A stretch of DNA of 64,000 nucleotides from Candidatus Magasanikiibacteriota bacterium. Its GTDB lineage: Bacteria; Patescibacteriota; Patescibacteriia; Magasanikbacterales; GWA2-37-8. Shown piece after piece: positions 15,959-45,667 of this stretch (position 1 is its first letter; every line of letters starts with the position of its first letter). Position numbers and translations under genes: made by a program. A model generated the notes under the pieces. That model ran no database searches. It saw only the letters and a list, made by a program, of their open reading frames with translations, and was not told the DNA's origin. Location: assembly GCA_963840935.1 (NCBI GenBank), contig CAWJAS010000001.1, positions 512,875 to 576,874 on the forward strand, read 5' to 3'.

Positions 15959-17641
15959 ATGGAAGAAAAACAAACAGCAAGTAATAACATGGTTGGCAGG
16001 ATAATTTTTTTCGTTTTCATTGCCGTAATTCTGGGTTTATTTTGGTATTTTAGCCGTGGCGAAAAAACAGATATTGCCAGCCAAAACGAAGAAAGCACGG
16101 CCATCAGGGGTAGTATTGTGTATGTTGATGGGGCTGTGGAATACAAAGAAAAGGACGGGGATTGGAAAAGAGCGGAATTGAATACAGATATAAAAGAAGG
16201 GAATTCAGTAGAAATTGTGGGCGAGGGGAAAGCAATCATTAATCTTGACGACGGTTCCGCGGTTCGCATGGACAGCGATTCACTAGTCGAATTTACATCA
16301 CTTGAACCGAATCACATATTAATCACGAATAACAACGGCCAAGTTTATACTCGCGTAGCAAAATTAACCGACAGAGTTTTCGAGGTGTCGGCAGGCGATG
16401 TTATTTATGAGTCAATGGGAACAGCGTACAAAACAATCAATAAAGAAAAAATAAAAGGGGTGGAAGTTTATCAAAGTAAAGTTAAAATAAAAGGAGCGAC
16501 TGAAGATGAGGTGGTGGTTGAAGAGGGGAATAAATATTTGGTACAAAACGACGCGGACAAAAAAATTGAAAAAACAATAGTTAAAATTGCCGTGGCGGAC
16601 ACGGAAAAAGATGAGTTTGTAAAATGGAATATGGCGGAAGATGAAAAAATGACGCAAAGCGATGGTGATGAAACCGCCGAGTCGGCATCGACAAGCGAAA
16701 CCACGCTTGAAGAAGAAACTGCGGTTGTGGTCGAAAATACCGAGGCAACATCCGATGGAATAGTGCTGGTTGGCAAACAAGTTTCCGATGGAGTAAGTTT
16801 GACTTGGACAGTAAACGGACTCGAAACACCCGACGGATTCAAAGTTGTGAGAAGTTTAACCACAGACCCTGTTTACCCGGGTGATAATTATTACTATTTA
16901 TCTTCACCCGACGCGCGAGCGCATAAATGGGCGGTTAAAGACGGAAAAACATATTATTTTCGAGTTTGCCAATATATTGACGGTAAATGCGTGTTATACA
17001 GCAATAACGTAAAAGTGACCGCGCCGAAAACGACCGAAACAACAACCTCAAACAGCGGGGATGTTACATCTCTTTCAATCAGTCATGTTGGTAGTGGAAA
17101 AGTATCTTGGACTTTAAAGGGTTATTCAGACCAAGGTTTTAAAGTGGTTTGGTCAAAGAATTCCGGTCCGACCTATCCAACCAGAAGCGGAGACAAATAT
17201 TTGTATTATTCGGACCCGGCGCAAAGAAACGCTGTGGTTACCGCTTTTGACGGTTACGGAACATATTATGTGCGCGTCTGTGAGTATTTGGGCGGAAAAT
17301 GCGGAGTTTATTCCAATCAGATTACCGTAACACTGGGCACTCCGGAAGAGACATCCGGTGGAGATGTGTCCTCAATTTCTTTAACATCGCTTGGTGGCGG
17401 AGATGTGCGCTGGAAAACAAGCGGTTATTCTGAAAGCGGATATAAGTTGGTTTGGTCCAAGAATTCAAGTCCGACTTACCCGTGCCGAAGCGGGGACAAA
17501 TATGCTTATTACAGCGACCCAGAAACAGTAACCGGCGAAATTAGCGCTTTTGATGGAGAGGGCAAATATTATGTGAGAGTTTGCGAATATTTGGGCGGAA
17601 AATGCGGTGTTTATTCAAATCAAATTGAAATTACATTATAA
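15959..17641 (+). CDS. membrane-anchored surface protein with three ~100-aa tandem repeats (beta-sandwich-like), FecR-like N-region
   Basis: N-terminal TM; repeats each ending ...YYVRVCEYLGGKCGVYSNQI.VTL; repeats 2 and 3 near-identical at nucleotide level. Confidence 0.6.
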   Translation: MEEKQTASNNMVGRIIFFVFIAVILGLFWYFSRGEKTDIASQNEESTAIRGSIVYVDGAVEYKEKDGDWKRAELNTDIKEGNSVEIVGEGKAIINLDDGSAVRMDSDSLVEFTSLEPNHILITNNNGQVYTRVAKLTDRVFEVSAGDVIYESMGTAYKTINKEKIKGVEVYQSKVKIKGATEDEVVVEEGNKYLVQNDADKKIEKTIVKIAVADTEKDEFVKWNMAEDEKMTQSDGDETAESASTSETTLEEETAVVVENTEATSDGIVLVGKQVSDGVSLTWTVNGLETPDGFKVVRSLTTDPVYPGDNYYYLSSPDARAHKWAVKDGKTYYFRVCQYIDGKCVLYSNNVKVTAPKTTETTTSNSGDVTSLSISHVGSGKVSWTLKGYSDQGFKVVWSKNSGPTYPTRSGDKYLYYSDPAQRNAVVTAFDGYGTYYVRVCEYLGGKCGVYSNQITVTLGTPEETSGGDVSSISLTSLGGGDVRWKTSGYSESGYKLVWSKNSSPTYPCRSGDKYAYYSDPETVTGEISAFDGEGKYYVRVCEYLGGKCGVYSNQIEITL

Positions 17642-17645
17642 ATAT

Positions 17646-18179
17646 ATGAATAGAGATAAGATTTTCGCCATTGCCACCATCGCTCTTGCCATTTGCGTGT
17701 TTGCATTTTTCGTCATTTCCGGACGACCGGTAAATAACGGGGATAATAACGCTGATTTGGCCTCAGAAAACCAAGAAGTTTTGACAGAGGAATCTGTTGC
17801 TACCGATGAAACGGCAACAACCACCCCAACGAGCACTCCGGAAGAAACAACAGTGAAAAAAACAACACCGGTTAAAACAACAACGCCGGCGCCCGGGGCG
17901 ATTACACAGTCTTACGCGGACGCGTTAAAAATTTACAGCACGAGCGGATATAGATTTCAATTTGTGAACTGCAAGGCAACTCCCGGAAAATTTACTATTA
18001 AGAAAGGCGCCAAATTCATGCTTGATAACCGCGATAATGTGGCACACAAAATCAAAGTCGGGTCTGTTAATTACAATATTGGCGCCTATGGCTTTGCCAT
18101 AGCGACAGCCAAGACTTTGGGATTGAATTACATCACTTGCGATGGCGGAGGAGCGGCTCAAATTCAAGTTGAACCGTAA
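17646..18179 (+). CDS. membrane-anchored secreted protein with Thr-rich linker, unknown function
   Basis: atg 17646 (MNRDKIF) preferred over 17607 which overlaps upstream gene; TM then ETATTTPTSTPEETTVKKTTPVKTTTPAPG linker. Confidence 0.5.
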   Translation: MNRDKIFAIATIALAICVFAFFVISGRPVNNGDNNADLASENQEVLTEESVATDETATTTPTSTPEETTVKKTTPVKTTTPAPGAITQSYADALKIYSTSGYRFQFVNCKATPGKFTIKKGAKFMLDNRDNVAHKIKVGSVNYNIGAYGFAIATAKTLGLNYITCDGGGAAQIQVEP

Positions 18180-18197
18180 AAATTTGCGATAATATAC

Positions 18198-18227
18198 AAA
18201 AAAACCCTGTTTTGCAGGGTTTTTTTG
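18198..18227. terminator. bidirectional rho-independent terminator
   Basis: aaaaaaccctg-ttttg-cagggttttttt. Confidence 0.75.
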
Positions 18228-18233
18228 GTGTTT

Positions 18234-18347
18234 TTAGTAATTGACTTTTCGCTTTTCGCGAAGTTTTTTTGTTTGAGAAGCAAGTTTTTTGCCCATTTTG
18301 GTGTTTTTTCTGGCGTGCTTGATTCTGCTTTTTAAGGCGCTATTCAT
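18234..18347 (-). CDS. small basic protein (37 aa, MNSALKSRIKHARKNTKMGKKLASQTKKLREKRKVNY), not in supplied ORF track
   Basis: atg 18347..18345 preceded on minus strand by perfect TTGACA-17-TATAAT promoter and followed by the bidirectional terminator at 18198-18227. Confidence 0.4.
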   Translation of the reverse strand: MNSALKSRIKHARKNTKMGKKLASQTKKLREKRKVNY

Positions 18348-18376
18348 AATTTATGGATTATTTGAACACAATATTT

Positions 18377-18405
18377 ATTATATCACATTTTTTGGGTTTT
18401 GTCAA
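18377..18405 (-). promoter_or_regulatory. consensus sigma70-type promoter (minus strand) TTGACA-17-TATAAT
   Basis: Reverse complement of 18377-18405 reads ttgaca-aaacccaaaaaatgtga-tataat; 29 nt upstream of small ORF atg. Confidence 0.55.
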
Positions 18406-18438
18406 CCCTATGTAGTGTAGCAATTACTACATAGGGTC
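18406..18438. promoter_or_regulatory. perfect 11-bp inverted repeat ccctatgtagt-N9-actacataggg
   Basis: Abuts the -35 of the minus-strand promoter; candidate operator/UP-site or transcript-insulating hairpin. Confidence 0.4.
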
Positions 18439-18683
18439 AAGATGGAATAATTTGCGGTTTTTTTCAACGGGTGGGTTATCCACAGCCCGAGCCAAACAAT
18501 CCTTTTATATAGCAAAATAACTTGCTATAATATACATAAGATTTATTAATTATTTATATGGCGCAAGCATGCTTGTGAGCGTCAATCAGGTCGAATAAAC
18601 AATTGATATTTCTTGCAAAAAGGTAGTGGGTCCGTCGATAATTTGCTACCTTATTAATTTACATTTAATTATATATATTAATT

Positions 18684-19286
18684 ATGAAAAAGATTTTAGC
18701 AATAGTGGCTGCGTTCGCAGTTGTTGGCTTCAATGGGTTTATGCTCATGGAAGGCGCTGTGACACAAGCACAAGATTCCGATGCCTGGAATGTAACATTA
18801 TCAGTCACCTCAGAAATAGCAGTAACATGTGATGATGTCGGTGGTGATTTAGCACTTGCTCCGGCAATCCCAGGTATGACCGGTGGTTCTGCTACCGCAG
18901 AAACAACATGTAATGTTGAAACAAGTAATGATGATGGGTGGACATTATCAATCATAGATGATAATGGTGATTTTGGTGCAATGATTGATGGTGGAAATTC
19001 AATAGACGCATACCCGACTTCGACGCCGGCCGCATGGGTATTAGACAGCACATCAGCTGCCTATTACGGTTATTTTGCCTCCAGCTCATTCGCAACAGGT
19101 GGTCATGGGTATAACTTATATCGCGATCTTGATAACGCCGGTGACGATGTAGCTACTGATTCAGAAGAAACTGGCCCTACCGGTGTAGATGTTGTTTTCG
19201 GTTTTAGAGCCGAGATTGGCAATACTGCCAACCAACCGAGTGGTGACTATGTTTCTAACGTTACTGTAACTGCTACGGAAAACTAG
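18684..19286 (+). CDS. secreted surface protein, WxL-domain-like (paralog A)
   Basis: Sec signal peptide; GWTLSI motif and C-terminal ..PSGDYVSNVTVTATEN resembling WxL-domain termini; paralogous to 20362..21141 (IPGMTGGSATAET vs IPGLSGGTATGSTEA). Confidence 0.35.
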   Translation: MKKILAIVAAFAVVGFNGFMLMEGAVTQAQDSDAWNVTLSVTSEIAVTCDDVGGDLALAPAIPGMTGGSATAETTCNVETSNDDGWTLSIIDDNGDFGAMIDGGNSIDAYPTSTPAAWVLDSTSAAYYGYFASSSFATGGHGYNLYRDLDNAGDDVATDSEETGPTGVDVVFGFRAEIGNTANQPSGDYVSNVTVTATEN

Positions 19287-29848: not shown

Positions 29849-30253
29849 ATGATTACTTTGCGAAGAGAAACCGATTACGCCATTCACATGCTTGTTTTTT
29901 TAAAAAATTCCAAGCTCGATTTTGTGAGCTTAAAAACTTTGGCCGTGGCAACCGGAATTTCCTTTTTATTTTTACAAAAAATCGCTCGTAAATTAAGACA
30001 ATCAGGTTTAATTAACGCGGGCAAAGGAGTGAGCGGGGGTTATGGATTAAACAAGGACCCCAAAAAAATTACATTAAAAATGATAATAGAAGCGACCGAA
30101 GGAACAACCGATATGTTGCCATGTTTGTGTAAATCGACCAGAATTAGAAATTGCGCGAATTCCGATATACGGTGTTCATTAAGCAAAAAATTGGCCAAGA
30201 CAAATTTTAAAATAGGCCAAGTTCTCAAAAATGTAAGGCTGTCGGATTTATAA
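29849..30253 (+). CDS. iscR: Rrf2-family transcriptional regulator (IscR-like)
   Basis: wHTH DYAIHMLVFL...GLINAGKGVSGGYGLNKDP; Cys residues CLC..C; directly upstream of iscS. Confidence 0.7.
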   Translation: MITLRRETDYAIHMLVFLKNSKLDFVSLKTLAVATGISFLFLQKIARKLRQSGLINAGKGVSGGYGLNKDPKKITLKMIIEATEGTTDMLPCLCKSTRIRNCANSDIRCSLSKKLAKTNFKIGQVLKNVRLSDL

Positions 30254-36085: not shown

Positions 36086-36334
36086 ATGAACTCAACAGAC
36101 CGCAAATACTATATATTTGCTTTAAAAATTATGCTGGATTTTGGCGCCACCATTGCGGTACCGGCTGTTATATTTTCACTAGCCGGCCAGTACTTTGACG
36201 CCAAATACGATAAAGCCCCGTTGTTTTTAATATTATTTCTTGTCACCGCTTTATTAATTACAATGAGTGTACTATTTAAAAAAGCAAAAATTTACGGTAA
36301 TTTATATCAAGAAATTGATAAAAAAGACGAATAA
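36086..36334 (+). CDS. small membrane protein at head of atp operon (AtpI/AtpZ-like)
   Basis: Two TM helices, position immediately upstream of atpB. Confidence 0.4.
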   Translation: MNSTDRKYYIFALKIMLDFGATIAVPAVIFSLAGQYFDAKYDKAPLFLILFLVTALLITMSVLFKKAKIYGNLYQEIDKKDE

Positions 36335-36336
36335 TT

Positions 36337-37116
36337 ATGCATATTCCCGGATTGGCTCCAGATATCTTGTTCCATATCGGCTCAACGCCGATAACAAACA
36401 CAATGATAAATACATGGCTCGCGCTGATAATATTTATTGATTATCGGCTTTTTTATTCGTAAAAATGTCGCCATTCGCCCGGGGAAATTTCAAAATGCTT
36501 TTGAATTTTTTTTGGAGGCAATTCTCGGACTCTTTGACCAAGTAACGGGGGACCGCAAAAAAACAATGAAATTTTTTCCTTTAGTCGGCTCAATTTTTTT
36601 CTTTATTTTACTTTCAAATTGGCTTGGGCTTTTACCCGGAACCGGCAGTATTACCTTTAACCACAGTCCGCTTTTGCGTCCGGCCAACACTGATTTGAAT
36701 TTGGTTTTAGGCATGACACTCGTCGTCGCTCATCGCTTCGCACGTACTTGGTCTTTTTGCGGTTGGATTTTTTCGCTTATTTTGGAAAATTTATTCAAAT
36801 CAAACCTTTTATATTGAGTTTTAAAAAGGGGCCAATCGCCGTTTTTACGGCATTTGTCGAAATGTTTGTCGGTGTGTTAGAAATAATCAGTGAAATGGCA
36901 AAAGCGTTGTCGCTCACTTTTCGTTTATTCGGAAACATTTTCGCCGGTGAAGTATTGATTGTGGTCATGACCTCGCTTGTGGCATTTTTGGTTCCGACCC
37001 CTTTCATGCTTTTGGAACTTTTGGTCGGATTAATTCAAGCCGGAGTATTTTCTATTTTAACGCTAGTCTATCTTACCGTCGCCACCACCGAACCGCACGG
37101 AGCGGAAAGTCATTAA
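36337..37116 (+). pseudogene. atpB: F0F1 ATP synthase subunit a (atpB) read through three frames: two apparent compensating frameshifts
   Basis: N-terminus MHIPGLAPDILFHIGSTPITNTMINTWLALIIFI in frame 1 stops at 36460; middle (..FFPLVGSIFFFILLSNWLGLLPG..LLRPANTDLNLVLGMTLVV) in frame 2 (36437-36817); C-terminus (..LSLTFRLFGNIFAGEVL..) back in frame 1 (36748-37116). Confidence 0.7.
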
Positions 37117-37152
37117 ATACAAAATTAATTAATTATTAAATAATTTAATTGT

Positions 37153-37374
37153 ATGGAGCACGAATCAATCGTAGTTCTCGCCAAAGCGATTATTATGGCG
37201 GTTTCAGGAATGGGCCCGGGTCTCGCCATTGGTATTTTGGTCGCCAGAGCGATGGAAGCAATCGGCAGAAATCCGGAAGCTAGCGGAAAAGTTTTTGTCC
37301 CAATGCTTTTGGGCGCGGCTTTTGCGGAGGCTATCGCCATTTACGCGTTGGTAGTCGTTTTTACGCTTAAATAA
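37153..37374 (+). CDS. atpE: F0F1 ATP synthase subunit c
   Basis: GIGPGLAIGI..ARAMEAIGRNPEA...AFAEAIAIYALVV hairpin proteolipid. Confidence 0.9.
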   Translation: MEHESIVVLAKAIIMAVSGMGPGLAIGILVARAMEAIGRNPEASGKVFVPMLLGAAFAEAIAIYALVVVFTLK

Positions 37375-37434
37375 TCTTTTAGGGCGAAACTGCGACGCAG
37401 GTTCGCTCAATAAATATTATTTAATATTCGATTT

Positions 37435-37992
37435 ATGAATTTTGTGCAAACAGCTTACGCCACATCACACGAAACGGCCGAGGTCGTCGTCGAACAAGGC
37501 TTGCTCGGCTCAATGGGTATTGATTTAAAAATGTTCATCCTTCAATTGGTAAACTTGGCCATTGTTTTTATTATTCTTTGGTTTTTGATATTAAAACCGC
37601 TGACTAAAAAAATGGCGGAACGTCAAAAAACAATCGACGAAAGTCTTGAAAATTCAAAAAAGATAGAGCAGATGCTCCAAAAATCCGAGGATGATTACAA
37701 AGACCAAATGCATACGGCAAAGACTGAGGCAAATCAAATTTTAGAAAAAGCAAAATTGGACGCCGAACTGACCGCGGAATCAATTAAAAAAAATACAAAA
37801 AACGATATTGACCAAATGGCGCTTACGGCCAAAAAAAACATAGATGATGAAAAACAAAAAATGGTCGCGAACTTTAAAAATGAGGCGGCTGATATTGTGG
37901 TACTCGCCCTTAAAAAAATCGTTTCCAACAATTTTGACACAAGCAAAGATAAAAAGGAGATTGATGACGCTCTTGAGATGATAAATAAATAA
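37435..37992 (+). CDS. atpF: F0F1 ATP synthase subunit b
   Basis: Single TM then long charged helix; operon position. Confidence 0.8.
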   Translation: MNFVQTAYATSHETAEVVVEQGLLGSMGIDLKMFILQLVNLAIVFIILWFLILKPLTKKMAERQKTIDESLENSKKIEQMLQKSEDDYKDQMHTAKTEANQILEKAKLDAELTAESIKKNTKNDIDQMALTAKKNIDDEKQKMVANFKNEAADIVVLALKKIVSNNFDTSKDKKEIDDALEMINK

Positions 37993-37995
37993 ATT

Positions 37996-38385
37996 ATGAA
38001 AAAAAATAGCGTCAAACAATACGCCGTGGCTTTGCACCAAGCGCTCGGCCTGGTAAAAAAAGAAAGCGACACCAGCGCTATTTTAAAAAATTTTAGCGCT
38101 TTGTTGGCCCGTGAAAAATTGTTAAAAAAATCACCGGCTATAATCAAAGAATTCGTCAAATATTCCAATGAAAAAGAGGGTATCGAAAGCGTAGAGGTCA
38201 AATCCGCTCGTCCGCTTGATAAAAAATCCATTGAAGCGATAAAAAAATATTTTGGCAACAAAATTATTTTGACCGAAAAAATCGACACGGAACTTATCGG
38301 TGGAGCGGTAATTAAAACAAAAGATTATATTATTGACGGCAGTATTCTAAAACATATTAATAATTTAAAACAACAGTTAATATAA
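37996..38385 (+). CDS. atpH: F0F1 ATP synthase subunit delta (short form)
   Basis: C-terminal ELIGGAVIKTKDYIIDGSI OSCP-like signature; operon position. Confidence 0.7.
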   Translation: MKKNSVKQYAVALHQALGLVKKESDTSAILKNFSALLAREKLLKKSPAIIKEFVKYSNEKEGIESVEVKSARPLDKKSIEAIKKYFGNKIILTEKIDTELIGGAVIKTKDYIIDGSILKHINNLKQQLI

Positions 38386-38391
38386 ATCACT

Positions 38392-39888
38392 ATGTCCATA
38401 AACAGTATTTTGGAAGAATTAAAAAAGAATATATCTTCTTTTGAAAAAAAAGTGGAAACCGAAGAGGTTGGCGAAATAATTGACGTGGGCGATAACATAG
38501 CGCACATCAGCGGGCTGAGAAATTGCCAATCAAGTGAGATGCTTGAGTTCCCGGGTAACTCATTCGGAGTGGCGCTTAACCTTGAAGACGAGACCATCGG
38601 CGCGGTTCTTCTTGGCGAGTCAAAACACTTGAAAGAAGGGGATACTGTGAAAAGAACCGGAAGAATATTGTCTGTTCCGGTGGGCGAGGAATTAATTGGC
38701 CGTGTGGTTAACCCTCTTGGTTCGGCAATTGACGGAGGAAGTGAAATAAATACAAAAACTTTTTATCCGATTGAAAAAATCGCGCCGGGCGTCATGACAA
38801 GAGAACCGGTGGCTGAACCATTGCAAACCGGCATCAAAGCTATTGATTCAATGATTCCGATTGGACGCGGTCAACGCGAATTAATTATCGGAGACAGACA
38901 AACCGGTAAAACGGCCGTGGCAATTGACACTATCATAAACCAAAAAGGCAAAAACATGATTTGTGTTTATGTGGCAATCGGCCAAAAAGAATCAAAAATC
39001 GCAAGAATTGTCACCAAACTCAAAGAATCGGGAGCAATGGACTATACAATCGTTGTTGTGGCCGGCGCCTCGGACCCCGCTTCGACCTTATATTTGGCTC
39101 CATACGCCGGAGTGGCGATGGCCGAGTATTTTATGGACAAGGGCAAAGACGTGCTTTGCGTTTACGACGATTTATCAAAACAAGCTTGGGCTTACAGAGA
39201 AATATCACTATTATTACGACGCCCGCCGGGAAGAGAAGCTTATCCGGGCGATGTTTTTTATCTTCACTCAAGATTGCTTGAACGAGCTTGTCGCAGAAAT
39301 AAAGAAGCCGGCGGAGGTTCAATTACCGCTCTGCCTATCATAGAAACTCAATCCGGCGATGTAACGGCCTACATTCCAACCAATGTTATTTCGATTACCG
39401 ACGGCCAAATTTATCTTGAATCTGATTTATTTTACCGTGGAATCAGACCGGCTTTAAACGTCGGCTTGTCGGTATCGCGCGTCGGTTCGGCGGCGCAAAT
39501 AAAACCAATGAAAAAAGTGGCCGGTAAATTAAAATTATCAATGGCGCAATTCAGAGAGTTAGAAGCTTTTGCGCAATTCGCCAGTGATTTGGACCCGGAA
39601 ACGAAAAAACAAATAAATTTGGGTCAAAGATTGGTTGAAATATTAAAACAACCGCAATACACCCCAATGTCCGTTGCCAATCAAGTGGCTATAATTTATG
39701 CAGTATCGAACGGGTACGCAGAAAATATCGACGTTAAAAACATTGACCGTTGGGAAACAAAATTTCATCAATTCATCAATAATTCAAAATCTTTATTGCT
39801 CGAAAAAATTGAAGGTGGCGATTGGAATGAAGAAATAGAAAATGAATTAAAATCTGCTTGCGAAGAATTCGCACAAATGGCGGAATAA
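38392..39888 (+). CDS. atpA: F0F1 ATP synthase subunit alpha
   Basis: GDRQTGKT Walker A, full-length alpha. Confidence 0.95.
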
Positions 39889-39894
39889 TCAACT

Positions 39895-40794
39895 ATGGCT
39901 TTAAACACAAAAATAATTAAGCGCAGAATCAAATCCGTTGGTTCAACAAAGAAAATCACCAAAGCGATGGAGATGATTTCTGCGGTCAAAATGAGGCGCG
40001 CTGTGGCCAATGTTTTGGCTACTCGAAACTACGCCTCGCTAGCCTGGCAAATGCTTGTTGATGTGGCCGGAAAAACAAACGTCAATTTGCACCCACTGCT
40101 CGTCAAAAGACCAATTTCAAAAATTGCGCTAATTTTAATCGCTTCAAACCGTGGTTTGGCCGGCGGTTTTAATAGCAGGGTTTTAATGGAAGCAAACTCA
40201 TTTTTAAAAAAATTTCAAGACACGGCGCAAAACATTGATATATTTATTAACGGAAAAAAAGCCAGAAAAATATATCATCAATTTGGATATAATATTGCCG
40301 CAGAATTCGAAAAATTGGATTTAACTCTTAACATTAATGAAATATATCCGATTTCAAAAATGATAATTTCCGATTACAATGAAAACAAATACGACGCCGT
40401 ATTTTTATGCTACACCGATTACATATCAGCGATAAAACAAATTCCGAAAATTAAAAAACTATTACCGCTTGGGCAGGAACCGGATTCAACGCTCGGGGGG
40501 ATCGGGGAATCGGAAGCAACCAAATTAAAAAAAGATGAAATTGAATTTTTATTTGAACCGAACCCGGTTGAAGTACTAGACACTTTACTGCCCAAATTAA
40601 TTGAAATGCAAATTTATCAAGCGGCTCTTGAATCCGATGCTTCAGAACACAGCGCGAGAATGATGGCAATGCGAAACGCTTCCGATGCCGCCGAAGAAAT
40701 GATTAACGAATTAAATTATAATTTTAATAAAGCCCGCCAAGCTGCGATTACGCAAGAAATTTCCGAGATCGTAAGTGGCGCCGCGGCCTTATGA
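39895..40794 (+). CDS. atpG: F0F1 ATP synthase subunit gamma
   Basis: IKRRIKSVGSTKKITKAMEMISAVKMRRA N-terminus, C-terminal ITQEISEIV. Confidence 0.9.
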   Translation: MALNTKIIKRRIKSVGSTKKITKAMEMISAVKMRRAVANVLATRNYASLAWQMLVDVAGKTNVNLHPLLVKRPISKIALILIASNRGLAGGFNSRVLMEANSFLKKFQDTAQNIDIFINGKKARKIYHQFGYNIAAEFEKLDLTLNINEIYPISKMIISDYNENKYDAVFLCYTDYISAIKQIPKIKKLLPLGQEPDSTLGGIGESEATKLKKDEIEFLFEPNPVEVLDTLLPKLIEMQIYQAALESDASEHSARMMAMRNASDAAEEMINELNYNFNKARQAAITQEISEIVSGAAAL

Positions 40795-40797
40795 TAA

Positions 40798-42183
<1,386 letters not shown>

Positions 42184-42197
42184 AAATCCTCGTAAAT

Positions 42198-42635
42198 ATG
42201 CAAAAAAAAATAAAATTTCAAATCATAACCCCCGAACGAGTTGTATTTGCCGATGAAATCGACCAAGTTTCAGTTATGACAAAGGATGGTGAAATAACAA
42301 TTCTACCGAACCATTTGCCGATTATATCTGTTTTACAAATTGGCGAATTAAGATGTAAAAAAGATGAAAAAGAATATTCAATGGCCGTAACCGGAGGGTT
42401 TGTTGAAGTTAAACCCGACAGTTCGGTTGTCATCTTGGCTGATGTGGCAGAAAAAGCAGAAGAAATTAATATTGAAGAAGCCGAGCTAGCCAGAAAAAAA
42501 GCTTTAGAAACAATGAAAGAACAAAGGACAATGGACAGCCTGGAATACGCAGCTCTTCAAGCGACACTTAACAAAGCGCTTATGCGCCTAAAAGTAGGGA
42601 ATAAATACAAAAATATTAAACCGGGCATCAGATAA
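42198..42635 (+). CDS. atpC: F0F1 ATP synthase subunit epsilon
   Basis: Operon position, beta-sandwich + helical hairpin length. Confidence 0.8.
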   Translation: MQKKIKFQIITPERVVFADEIDQVSVMTKDGEITILPNHLPIISVLQIGELRCKKDEKEYSMAVTGGFVEVKPDSSVVILADVAEKAEEINIEEAELARKKALETMKEQRTMDSLEYAALQATLNKALMRLKVGNKYKNIKPGIR

Positions 42636-42668: not shown

Positions 42669-42694
42669 AAATACCGCCTTGTGCGGTATTTTTG
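42669..42694 (+). terminator. rho-independent terminator after atp operon
   Basis: aataccgc-cttgt-gcggtatt + tttg. Confidence 0.6.
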
Positions 42695-42718
42695 TATTTG
42701 TTATACTACCGCACACAC

Positions 42719-45667
42719 ATGATAAAAACAGTTTCAAAGCTAAATTCCGCCCAAAAACAGGCCGTTGAACATATTCAAGGGCCTTTGATTATTGTTGCCG
42801 GAGCAGGTACCGGAAAAACTACGGTTATCACCCAAAAAATCAAATTTTTAATTGACAACAAATTAGCCGAGCCGGAAGAAATTTTGGCTTTGACTTTTAA
42901 TGAAAAGGCCGCGGCCGAAATGCAAAACCGCATAGATGAAACAATAGAAATCGGATATTTAAATACGAACATACACACTTTTCACGCTTTTTGCGAGCGT
43001 CTTTTGGAAAGACACGCAATTGATATCGGTTTGCCGGCGCATTTTAAAATGCTTAGCCCCTCCGACGCTTGGATCTTAATCAGAAAACATTTGGATAAAT
43101 TCGAGCTTGATTATTACCGTCCGATTGGAAACCCGACAAAAAATATACACGAATTGATTAAGCATTTTTCCAAGTGCAAAGACGAAATGATTAGCCCTGA
43201 TGATTATTTGGAATACGCGGAAAATATTCAATTGAACAAAGACAGCGCGCAGATTGAAGAAAAAAGCAGGCTTACGGAAATCAGCCGAGCTTATCACGCA
43301 TACAATCAATTACTGCTAAAAAATTCTTGCTTGGATTTTGGCGACCTTATATATTACGCCAACATTTTGTTGTCAAAACGTCCAAATATATTAAAAGAAA
43401 TCCATGAACAATTCAAATATATTTTGGTTGATGAATTTCAAGATGTAAATTGGTCACAATATGAACTGATTAAAAAATTAACCGGTGAATCCACGCAATT
43501 AACTGTTGTGGGCGATGACGACCAAAGTATTTATGCGTTTAGAGGCGCTTCGGTGTCAAATATATTAAAATTCAAAGTAGATTATCCTAATGCCACCGAA
43601 ATTATTCTCACGGAAAATTATCGGTCAGGCCAACAAATTTTAGACAAAGCATATGAACTAATTCAAAATAACAATCCCGACCGTTTGGAAATCAAATTAA
43701 ATATTAACAAAAAATTAAACAGTAACTCCCGTGAAAAAGGCAACGTTATTCACTCTTATGCAAACAACATGGAGGAAGAGGCCAATTTTGTCGGCGAAGA
43801 AATCATTAAAATCAAAGAAGCAAATCCCGATACTTTATGGGATGATTTTGCGATTTTAATCAGAGCGAACAGTCATGCCGACGCATTTATGTCCAAATTG
43901 GAACAGATGAGAATTCCCTATGAATTTTTGGCTTCCGCGGGGCTTTATCGCCAACCAATCGTTCTTGATTGTATTAATTATTTCAAGGTCATTGATAATT
44001 ACCACGAATCGGCGTCAATTTACAGATTGTTAAGAATGCCACCTGTTGGTTTAGACGAAAACGATATTCAAAAAATACTATTTTTTGCCAAAAAAATTAA
44101 ATCGATTTCTTATTATGAAGCGTTAAACCGCAGAGCGGAAATTGATTTATCAGATGAGGGAAAAATAAAAATTGATAAATTGTTTTCTGCCTTGAAAGAA
44201 GGAATAAACGGCGCAAAAAATAACAAACCCACGGCCTTGTTATATAAATTTCTGGAATCGAGCGGTTATTTAAAATATCTTCTTGAGGGGGAAACCTGCG
44301 GAGAGAAAAATACTATCAGGCAAATTTTTCAACTAAGCCAATTTTTTGAATACATTGCCAACTATGAAAAAATAACTCCCGACCCGGCGGTTGCCGATTT
44401 TATGGATCACTTTTCGCAAATTTTAGAATCCGGAGATTTGGGAATAATTAAACAACCGGAAGATACTCCCGACTCAGTAAATATATTAACCGTGCACACG
44501 GCAAAAGGGCTTGAATATAAATATGTTTTTATGGTTAATTTGGTTGAGGAAAGATTTCCAACCAGACGGAGAGGGGAGATGATTGAAATGCCGGTTGAAT
44601 TAATCAAAGAGCAATTACCCGAAGGAGACAGTCATGAGCAAGAAGAACGGCGTTTGTTTTATGTGGCGATGACGCGCGCCAAAGAGCGACTATATTTGGT
44701 GAGTGCCGATAATTACGGGGGAGCCAGAACAAAAAAAATCAGTCGTTTCTTGGCGGAAATTGGATACAACGCCACGAGTACAGAAAATAAAGAAACAAAA
44801 TCAAAATTATCAAATTTTGACAATTCTTTGCGCAAGCAAAATGACAATTCGGATTTTAAATACGAAATTCCAAATTATTTTTCTTTTACGGACTTGCAAA
44901 CATATAATTCCTGCCCATACAAATATAAACTTGGAAGAATTTTAAAATTGCCGACACAAGGAAGTCCAAGTATGACATTCGGTTCGGTCATGCATGCAAC
45001 GCTTGAAGAATTTTATAAATTGCTCATGGAGATTAATTCGATAAAGCAAAACGCGCTATTTAATGAACCGACCGAGCCGAATACAGGTAGCAAAATAAAA
45101 GCGCCCCCGATTGAAAAACTATATGAGTTATTTGACGCTTTTTGGCGCTCTGATTCCTATTTGGATACAAGGCAGAGAGAAGATTTTTATCAAAAAGGAA
45201 AAAATATACTGGCCGATTTTTATAAAAAAAATAATAATAGCGGATGGACAATGCCGGTCGCTCTAGAAACAAAATTTTCCGTTAAAATTGGTGATGGGAT
45301 AATTACCGGAAGAATAGACCGTGTTGATATGTCTGCCCCCGGCAAATTGGAAATTATTGATTACAAAACCGGCAAAAGCAAAGACAAGCTTGATAGCGAA
45401 AGCAAGGAACAATTATTGATTTACCAAATTGTTCTCGAACAGCTTCCTCAATTCAAAGCCATTGGAAACTGTGAAAAACTAACTTATTATTATTTAGACG
45501 ATAATTCCAAATTGTCTTTTCTTGGAAATGAAAAAGATGTCGAAAAAATGAATGATAAAATTTCCGAGGCGATAAAAAATATTCGCAAAGGCGATTTTCC
45601 GCCAAAACCCGAAAAATATTATTGCGGACACTGTGATTTCCGCGATATCTGTGATTATCGACAATAA
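42719..45667 (+). CDS. UvrD/PcrA-family helicase fused to C-terminal PD-(D/E)XK (RecB/Cas4-like, Cys4) nuclease domain
   Basis: Walker A AGAGTGKTT, DEFQDVN, VGDDDQSIYAFRGA helicase motifs; C-terminal CPYKYK, EIIDYKTGK, CGHCDFRDICD; atg 42719 (MIKTV) preferred. Confidence 0.8.
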   Translation: MIKTVSKLNSAQKQAVEHIQGPLIIVAGAGTGKTTVITQKIKFLIDNKLAEPEEILALTFNEKAAAEMQNRIDETIEIGYLNTNIHTFHAFCERLLERHAIDIGLPAHFKMLSPSDAWILIRKHLDKFELDYYRPIGNPTKNIHELIKHFSKCKDEMISPDDYLEYAENIQLNKDSAQIEEKSRLTEISRAYHAYNQLLLKNSCLDFGDLIYYANILLSKRPNILKEIHEQFKYILVDEFQDVNWSQYELIKKLTGESTQLTVVGDDDQSIYAFRGASVSNILKFKVDYPNATEIILTENYRSGQQILDKAYELIQNNNPDRLEIKLNINKKLNSNSREKGNVIHSYANNMEEEANFVGEEIIKIKEANPDTLWDDFAILIRANSHADAFMSKLEQMRIPYEFLASAGLYRQPIVLDCINYFKVIDNYHESASIYRLLRMPPVGLDENDIQKILFFAKKIKSISYYEALNRRAEIDLSDEGKIKIDKLFSALKEGINGAKNNKPTALLYKFLESSGYLKYLLEGETCGEKNTIRQIFQLSQFFEYIANYEKITPDPAVADFMDHFSQILESGDLGIIKQPEDTPDSVNILTVHTAKGLEYKYVFMVNLVEERFPTRRRGEMIEMPVELIKEQLPEGDSHEQEERRLFYVAMTRAKERLYLVSADNYGGARTKKISRFLAEIGYNATSTENKETKSKLSNFDNSLRKQNDNSDFKYEIPNYFSFTDLQTYNSCPYKYKLGRILKLPTQGSPSMTFGSVMHATLEEFYKLLMEINSIKQNALFNEPTEPNTGSKIKAPPIEKLYELFDAFWRSDSYLDTRQREDFYQKGKNILADFYKKNNNSGWTMPVALETKFSVKIGDGIITGRIDRVDMSAPGKLEIIDYKTGKSKDKLDSESKEQLLIYQIVLEQLPQFKAIGNCEKLTYYYLDDNSKLSFLGNEKDVEKMNDKISEAIKNIRKGDFPPKPEKYYCGHCDFRDICDYRQ

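Follow-up and report, generated by a model that had tools for sequence, protein, structure and literature searches.

Three extra bases interrupt atpB in an otherwise intact ATP synthase operon of a Candidatus Magasanikiibacteriota bacterium and probably reflect consensus errors from collapsed haplotypes

The gene for subunit a of the F-type ATP synthase, atpB, is broken by three single-base insertions in the window, that is, the whole stretch of 64,000 nucleotides of a Candidatus Magasanikiibacteriota contig that was analysed here, and these frameshifts are private to the window sequence. The three extra bases are probably consensus indel errors, introduced during assembly or polishing from collapsed haplotypes, and not mutations, and the ATP synthase of the organism is almost certainly normal. 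The disruption of atpB within an otherwise intact operon, with a split reading frame and a stop at position 36460, had been pointed out in an earlier note made from the letters alone, and on both counts that description was borne out by the ORF list, the translation and the comparison with relatives. The region 36337-37116 of the forward strand consists of three overlapping open reading frames (ORFs) in frames 1, 2 and 1 (Table 1), and translation of the gene as deposited stops after 41 residues. A 100-aa C-terminal fragment of atpB (P0121, start TTG at 36814) is recorded in NCBI/ENA on the 770,905-nt source contig, which by its length comes close to an entire CPR genome.

DNA alignments to every relative identify exactly three surplus single bases, a T at 36433, a G at 36725 and a C at 36774. 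Combined protein and DNA alignment takes the gene from frame 1 to frame 2 at the first of them, from frame 2 to frame 3 at the second and from frame 3 back to frame 1 at the third, with a net change of +3 nt from the three +1 shifts. A typical subunit a gene is a single uninterrupted ORF in one frame; atpB as deposited has its frame interrupted three times, and its three ORFs have to be read through four frame segments. The earlier note had proposed two compensating frameshifts, whereas alignment to intact homologues gives three insertions in the same direction; it had missed the 16-codon frame-3 segment 36726-36773. Frame 3 is the sole readable frame of LIASHVLGLFAVGFF (36729-36773), which lies in that segment, and the frame-3 translation of the segment is an exact match to P0001 and P0123, on which ground a two-shift model was rejected. 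The shift sites that the note had placed near 36436-36445 and at 36720-36750 turned out to be approximate, and it was the alignment to the atpB of relatives, as the note had recommended, that located the exact indels. Downstream of the last one, segment 4 contains the conserved LSLTFRLFGNIFAGE motif with its invariant arginine, and the Arg-helix motif LSLxFRLFGNIFAGE is invariant in the subunit a alignment.

The exact placement of each extra base has some play. The first may lie anywhere in 36433-36435, within a T3 run; the second, inside TCGTCGTCG, could equally be scored as a C at 36724; and the third, a C directly after the T6 run 36768-36773, is equivalent to one T of that run. A homopolymer cause, which had been suggested before, fails at the second site and is weak at the first and third (a T3 run and a position after a T6 run), with no long homopolymers involved. 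An explanation by homopolymer sequencing error only was rejected since TCGTCGTCG holds no homopolymer, and an alternative genetic code was rejected as well, the frame-1 stop at 36460 being TAA with no TGA involved.

Table 1. Positions of atpB as deposited, of its frame segments and extra bases, of the divergent block and of the neighbouring atp genes. The last column gives the allele pair that would be written in tandem under the proposed consensus error.
Feature	Positions	Strand	Description	Proposed allele pair
atpI-like small membrane protein	36086-36334	+	82 aa, intact; PF09527 6.8e-07; relatives' length	
atpB ORF 1	36337-36462	+	Frame 1, TAA at 36460	
atpB ORF 2	36437-36817	+	Frame 2	
atpB ORF 3	36748-37116	+	Frame 1	
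atpB segment 1	36337-36432	+	Codons 1-32, frame 1; translation and alignment to intact homologues	
Divergent haplotype block	36382-36774	+	393 nt; 90.8% identity to same-species contigs	
Extra base 1 (T)	36433	+	ATA ATA [T] TTA TTG; gap in all same-species/related contigs	Site 1, ATA + T: Ile ATA / ATT, L003-type allele first
atpB segment 2	36434-36724	+	Codons 33-129, frame 2; translation and alignment	
Extra base 2 (G)	36725	+	CTC GTC [G] TCG CTC; gap in all same-species/related contigs	Site 2, GTC + G: Val GTC / GTG, L003-type allele first
atpB segment 3	36726-36773	+	Codons 130-145 (SLIASHVLGLFAVGFF), frame 3	
Extra base 3 (C)	36774	+	GGA TTT TTT [C] GCT TAT; gap in all same-species/related contigs	Site 3, TTT + C: Phe TTT / TTC, L003-type allele first
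atpB segment 4	36775-37116	+	Codons 146-258 and stop, frame 1; translation and alignment	
atpE, atpF, atpH, atpA, atpG, atpD, atpC	37153-42635	+	All intact; ORF lengths identical to relatives	

Deletion of 36433, 36725 and 36774 yields a 777-nt ORF that encodes a 258-aa subunit a with no in-frame stops in the corrected frame. The note had named, as an outcome that would refute its reading, a full-length single-frame translation upon correction of one base at each of its two sites; such a translation is essentially obtained, by correcting three sites and not two. The corrected AtpB is 98% identical to the intact same-species protein P0123 (L003/L095 type) and 94-95% identical to P0001, P0122 and P0124; P0001, at 94% identity, is scored as the best homologue, and the homologues are 258-aa subunits a of Candidatus Magasanikbacteria / Patescibacteria. 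A stitched, near-identical reconstruction matches PF00119 (ATP-synt_A) at 8.5e-40, scores 137.4 bits where the cutoff is 33.9 and covers profile positions 2-216 of 217; these values belong to the frame-corrected sequence only. In length and in identity to the retrieved relatives (65-98%), the corrected sequence is like a typical subunit a (AtpB, PF00119) of these groups. In the corrected frame, comparison with the same-species copy yields 28 synonymous and 6 non-synonymous codon differences (22 and 4, respectively, within the out-of-frame stretch), a ratio indicating that atpB has evolved as a working gene.

The surroundings of atpB are those of a canonical atpI-B-E-F-H-A-G-D-C operon. The start of atpE lies 37 nt downstream of atpB and the full atp operon follows, with atpE, F, H, A, G, D and C encoding 73, 185, 129, 498, 299, 458 and 145 aa. 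The eight other atp genes, all of them at the lengths found in relatives, show the lowest SNP density of the region when compared with the same-species contig. When the 64 kb were tiled greedily with ORFs, long ORFs were found throughout and no gene other than atpB was visibly fragmented, the larger gaps containing tRNAs or AT-rich intergenic sequence, and no second atpB was found within the 64-kb window.

Comparison with relatives sets the window apart. The gene is full-length in one frame at 97 of 100 related loci, the other three being truncated by the end of their contigs; these loci comprise 80 from a scan of GTDB genomes, all of them intact, and further loci from public assemblies. Short contigs of the same species, from the runs SRR267867xx/SRR267868xx, share ~97.9% identity with the window. 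One of them, SRR26786800_162, was aligned over 20.78 kb and shows 424 SNPs and only four indels, of which three fall in atpB within 342 nt of each other (simulated p = 0.003). The fourth, at 30251, is an A4 run in the window against A5 in the relative and sits at a gene boundary. It coincides with the stop of an Rrf2-family gene, just upstream of the start of a cysteine desulfurase gene whose product is called 11 aa shorter in the relative (391 vs 402 aa).

Searches of large collections returned little that resembles the broken gene. A collection of 15 billion proteins held no frameshifted atpB fragment beyond the source's own 100-aa C-terminal call, and a homology search with the 126-aa frame-2 ORF, which includes an out-of-frame tail, gave no match covering that tail. 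Two DNA scans of JGI metagenomes, in which the extra bases were allowed to be present or absent, gave no matches, which implies that the species is not represented in the JGI metagenomes scanned. No intact copy of exactly the atpB haplotype of the window was found in the public collections searched.

The key to the likely cause is the strain-heterogeneous, recombinant-looking block that holds the indels, which was beyond the view of the earlier reader. All three extra bases lie inside this 393-nt block, which is the most divergent of the region: it differs from the same-species contigs at ~9% of positions, against 1-2% in the flanks and 1.3% (98.7% identity) in the rest of the gene. Of all positions in this block, only six are unique to the window, three of them being the insertions themselves, and most of the window alleles there are common to one or another relative, including the more distant L001 and L094. 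The appearance of the block is that of a genuine haplotype, either a short tract of homologous recombination or an old balanced one. Targeted mutagenesis of the kind driven by DGRs was considered and rejected, the substitutions being mostly synonymous and not adenine-specific.

Further indications on this block come from public runs containing the window strain. Its exact proteins (TatD-like, AtpI-like, AtpE and AtpC) were found in the Logan assemblies of ERR15459710 and ERR12035938 only and, besides those two runs, on one 0.2-1 Mb contig. In both runs the upstream Logan contig stops at 36381, one base short of the first SNP of the block, and its downstream counterpart begins at 36775, directly after the third extra base; the overlap between adjacent contigs is k-1 = 30 nt, which is what k = 31 would give. 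Other contig breaks in the two runs do not coincide with differences between the window and L003. Breaks that bracket 36382-36774 in both runs are indirect evidence, and imply that the samples with this strain contain no fewer than two haplotypes spanning precisely this block. The Logan contig of ERR12035938 that covers approximately 36775-41562 of the window splits atpA into pieces of 316 and 115 aa, while atpA is intact in the window; it is also 2 nt shorter than its counterpart from ERR15459710, which suggests noisy reads in ERR12035938.

These observations fit with a model in which the samples behind the assembly hold two strain variants that share their flanks and differ at ~10% of positions in 36382-36774. 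The assembly, probably a long-read metagenome-assembled genome (MAG) judging from the 771-kb contig, would have merged the two into a single sequence. Reads from both haplotypes would then have been misaligned at three variant positions, in such a way that the two alleles of a synonymous difference at the third codon position were written in tandem and one base was added per event (Table 1, last column). The real gene would in that case encode an ordinary functional F-type ATP synthase subunit a of 258 aa. The source contig, of 770,905 nt, contrasts with k-mer contigs of 1-5 kb from the same runs, and the combination of so long a contig with short and noisy k-mer contigs suggests error-prone long reads. 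The alleles ATT, GTG and TTC, which the model invokes as second members of the pairs, are common in relatives (L094 has ATT and GTG, and L001 has GTG). The pattern of two adjoining alleles fits all three sites; it would be expected by chance for 42% of random single insertions and for all three with a probability of 7.6%, and it thus lends weak support to an artefact. Since the last allelic difference would be the TTT/TTC site, the model also predicts a contig start at 36775, the position at which the downstream contigs begin. Against an artefact stand the facts that sites 1 and 2 are not classic homopolymer contexts of long-read error and that the public collections searched yielded no intact copy of exactly this haplotype.

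Errors of this kind have precedents. Collapsed alleles with nearby variants have been described to cause read misalignment, INDEL errors and truncated ORFs in the genome of Trypanosoma brucei Lister 427 (PMC8445201). As in atpB, conserved ORFs were truncated there by apparent frameshifts at places where the co-assembled alleles differ nearby, the shifts disappear when single bases are removed, and the remaining assembly is clean; the alleles of T. brucei belong to homologous chromosomes, whereas those proposed here would belong to co-occurring strains of a metagenome as the presumed cause. Frameshift artefacts are commonplace in genomes from Nanopore metagenomes, with ~5.9 frameshift events per genome (bioRxiv 10.64898/2026.05.13.725050), and that preprint cites Watson & Warr 2019 on frameshifts in long-read assemblies. 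A study on red algal mitochondria reports that organellar ATP synthase 'pseudogenes' described earlier were later shown to be sequencing errors (PMC5381584). The case likewise concerns an essential bioenergetic gene that is frameshifted in one deposit and intact in relatives, and it differs in organism and technology.

A reading that survives less well, and that we hold to be unlikely, takes the insertions as a real and very recent frameshift allele, in which three 1-nt insertions would have entered atpB in one lineage of the population. They might perhaps stem from a single event of error-prone repair or recombination that also imported the divergent 393-nt tract. Such an allele would inactivate the Fo proton channel, and the population would at the same time retain an intact one. 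The insertions are, after all, present in the deposited sequence and coincide with a recombinant-looking tract, and the k-mer graphs of two runs branch at 36774/36775, which is the picture that a mixture of alleles carrying the C and alleles lacking it would give; this branch is compatible both with the artefact and with a real segregating C-insertion allele. CPR bacteria are symbionts with a reduced metabolism, in which a loss of ATP synthase function is conceivable. On the other hand, three independent insertions in 342 nt are improbable when the remaining 20.8 kb holds one indel, at a gene boundary, and the frameshift is seen at none of the 97 relatives' loci with a full-length gene. The protein collection, in turn, returned nothing but the source's own fragment. 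Neither does the gene bear the marks of a decaying pseudogene: the 28:6 ratio gives no sign of relaxed selection, no extra stops are left after correction, and all eight partner subunits are intact and highly conserved, with no other sign of atpB decay. Should the insertions nevertheless be real, they would represent a loss-of-function allele that segregates in an uncultured symbiont whose ATP synthase is otherwise strongly conserved, which would be moderately interesting.

Programmed recoding, in which ribosomal +1 frameshifting or a correction of the transcript at the three sites would produce a full-length subunit a, is highly improbable. In its favour, the shifts are all +1 and jointly bring the frame back, purifying selection acts on the corrected frame, and a tRNA-Phe in the P site could slip from UUU onto UUC at site 3. 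The three sites have no motif in common, however, and at sites 1 (AUA to UAU) and 2 (GUC to UCG) the tRNA in the P site is unable to pair again in the +1 frame. Neither stops nor rare codons occupy the A site (the CGC of site 3 ranks second among the Arg codons by usage, with 8.8 per 1000), direct reading of the sequence upstream of the shift sites revealed no Shine-Dalgarno-like stimulator, and the T3 and T6 runs are too short for transcriptional slippage. The shifts are not conserved, the gene being in a single frame in every relative with a full-length copy, including the 98%-identical copies of the same species. For the +1 frameshift of bacterial prfB, stimulators have been defined and conservation extends across bacteria; the shifts of atpB have neither. 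Several +1 shifts in one conserved gene for a bioenergetic membrane protein are known from the mitochondrial cox1 of Perkinsus marinus, where programmed shifts occur at every AGG and CCC codon (PMC2952869), a fixed codon context that has no equivalent in atpB. Measured against the hallmarks of programmed +1 frameshifting, namely conservation in orthologues, a slippery P-site, a slow A-site and stimulators, atpB falls short, and such frameshifting is effectively excluded as a conserved mechanism. Just as improbable is the variant in which the insertions are real and a Patescibacteria lineage expresses atpB through three separate, context-independent +1 frameshifts or by mRNA correction; if true, this would amount to a kind of recoding that is not known from bacteria. 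The order in which the earlier note had ranked its candidates, with sequencing or assembly indels ahead of pseudogenisation and with programmed frameshifting as unlikely, agrees with this evidence.

Taking consensus errors from collapsed haplotypes as the preferred explanation, the break in atpB is probably of no biological consequence, and the gene is for now best treated as an ordinary functional one. The useful outcome is then a corrected atpB annotation. As deposited, the MAG would score as having no functional Fo a-subunit, which could lead to false inferences on the energy metabolism of CPR bacteria. The case also illustrates how strain-heterogeneous recombinant blocks can give rise to clusters of frameshift artefacts in assemblies that are clean elsewhere.

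Some minor observations concern other parts of the window. At 15959-18179, a 560-aa ORF with a FecR domain overlaps the next ORF on the same strand, of 190 aa and in a different frame, by 35 nt; the latter has no Pfam match, and the pair may be two genes or one frameshifted gene. It is followed by an AT-rich stretch of 504 nt (18180-18683) in which neither a tRNA nor an Rfam match was found and whose 3' edge carries only overlapping ORFs, of 68 aa (18626-18832, forward strand) and 128 aa (18665-19051, reverse strand). This stretch lies upstream of the gene for a 200-aa protein without Pfam match whose hydrophobic N-terminus makes it a possibly secreted product. Beyond the atp operon, the UvrD/AddB-like helicase-nuclease at 42692-45667 measures 991 aa when read from its first TTG, against 982 aa in all relatives, and its true start is probably 9 codons downstream.
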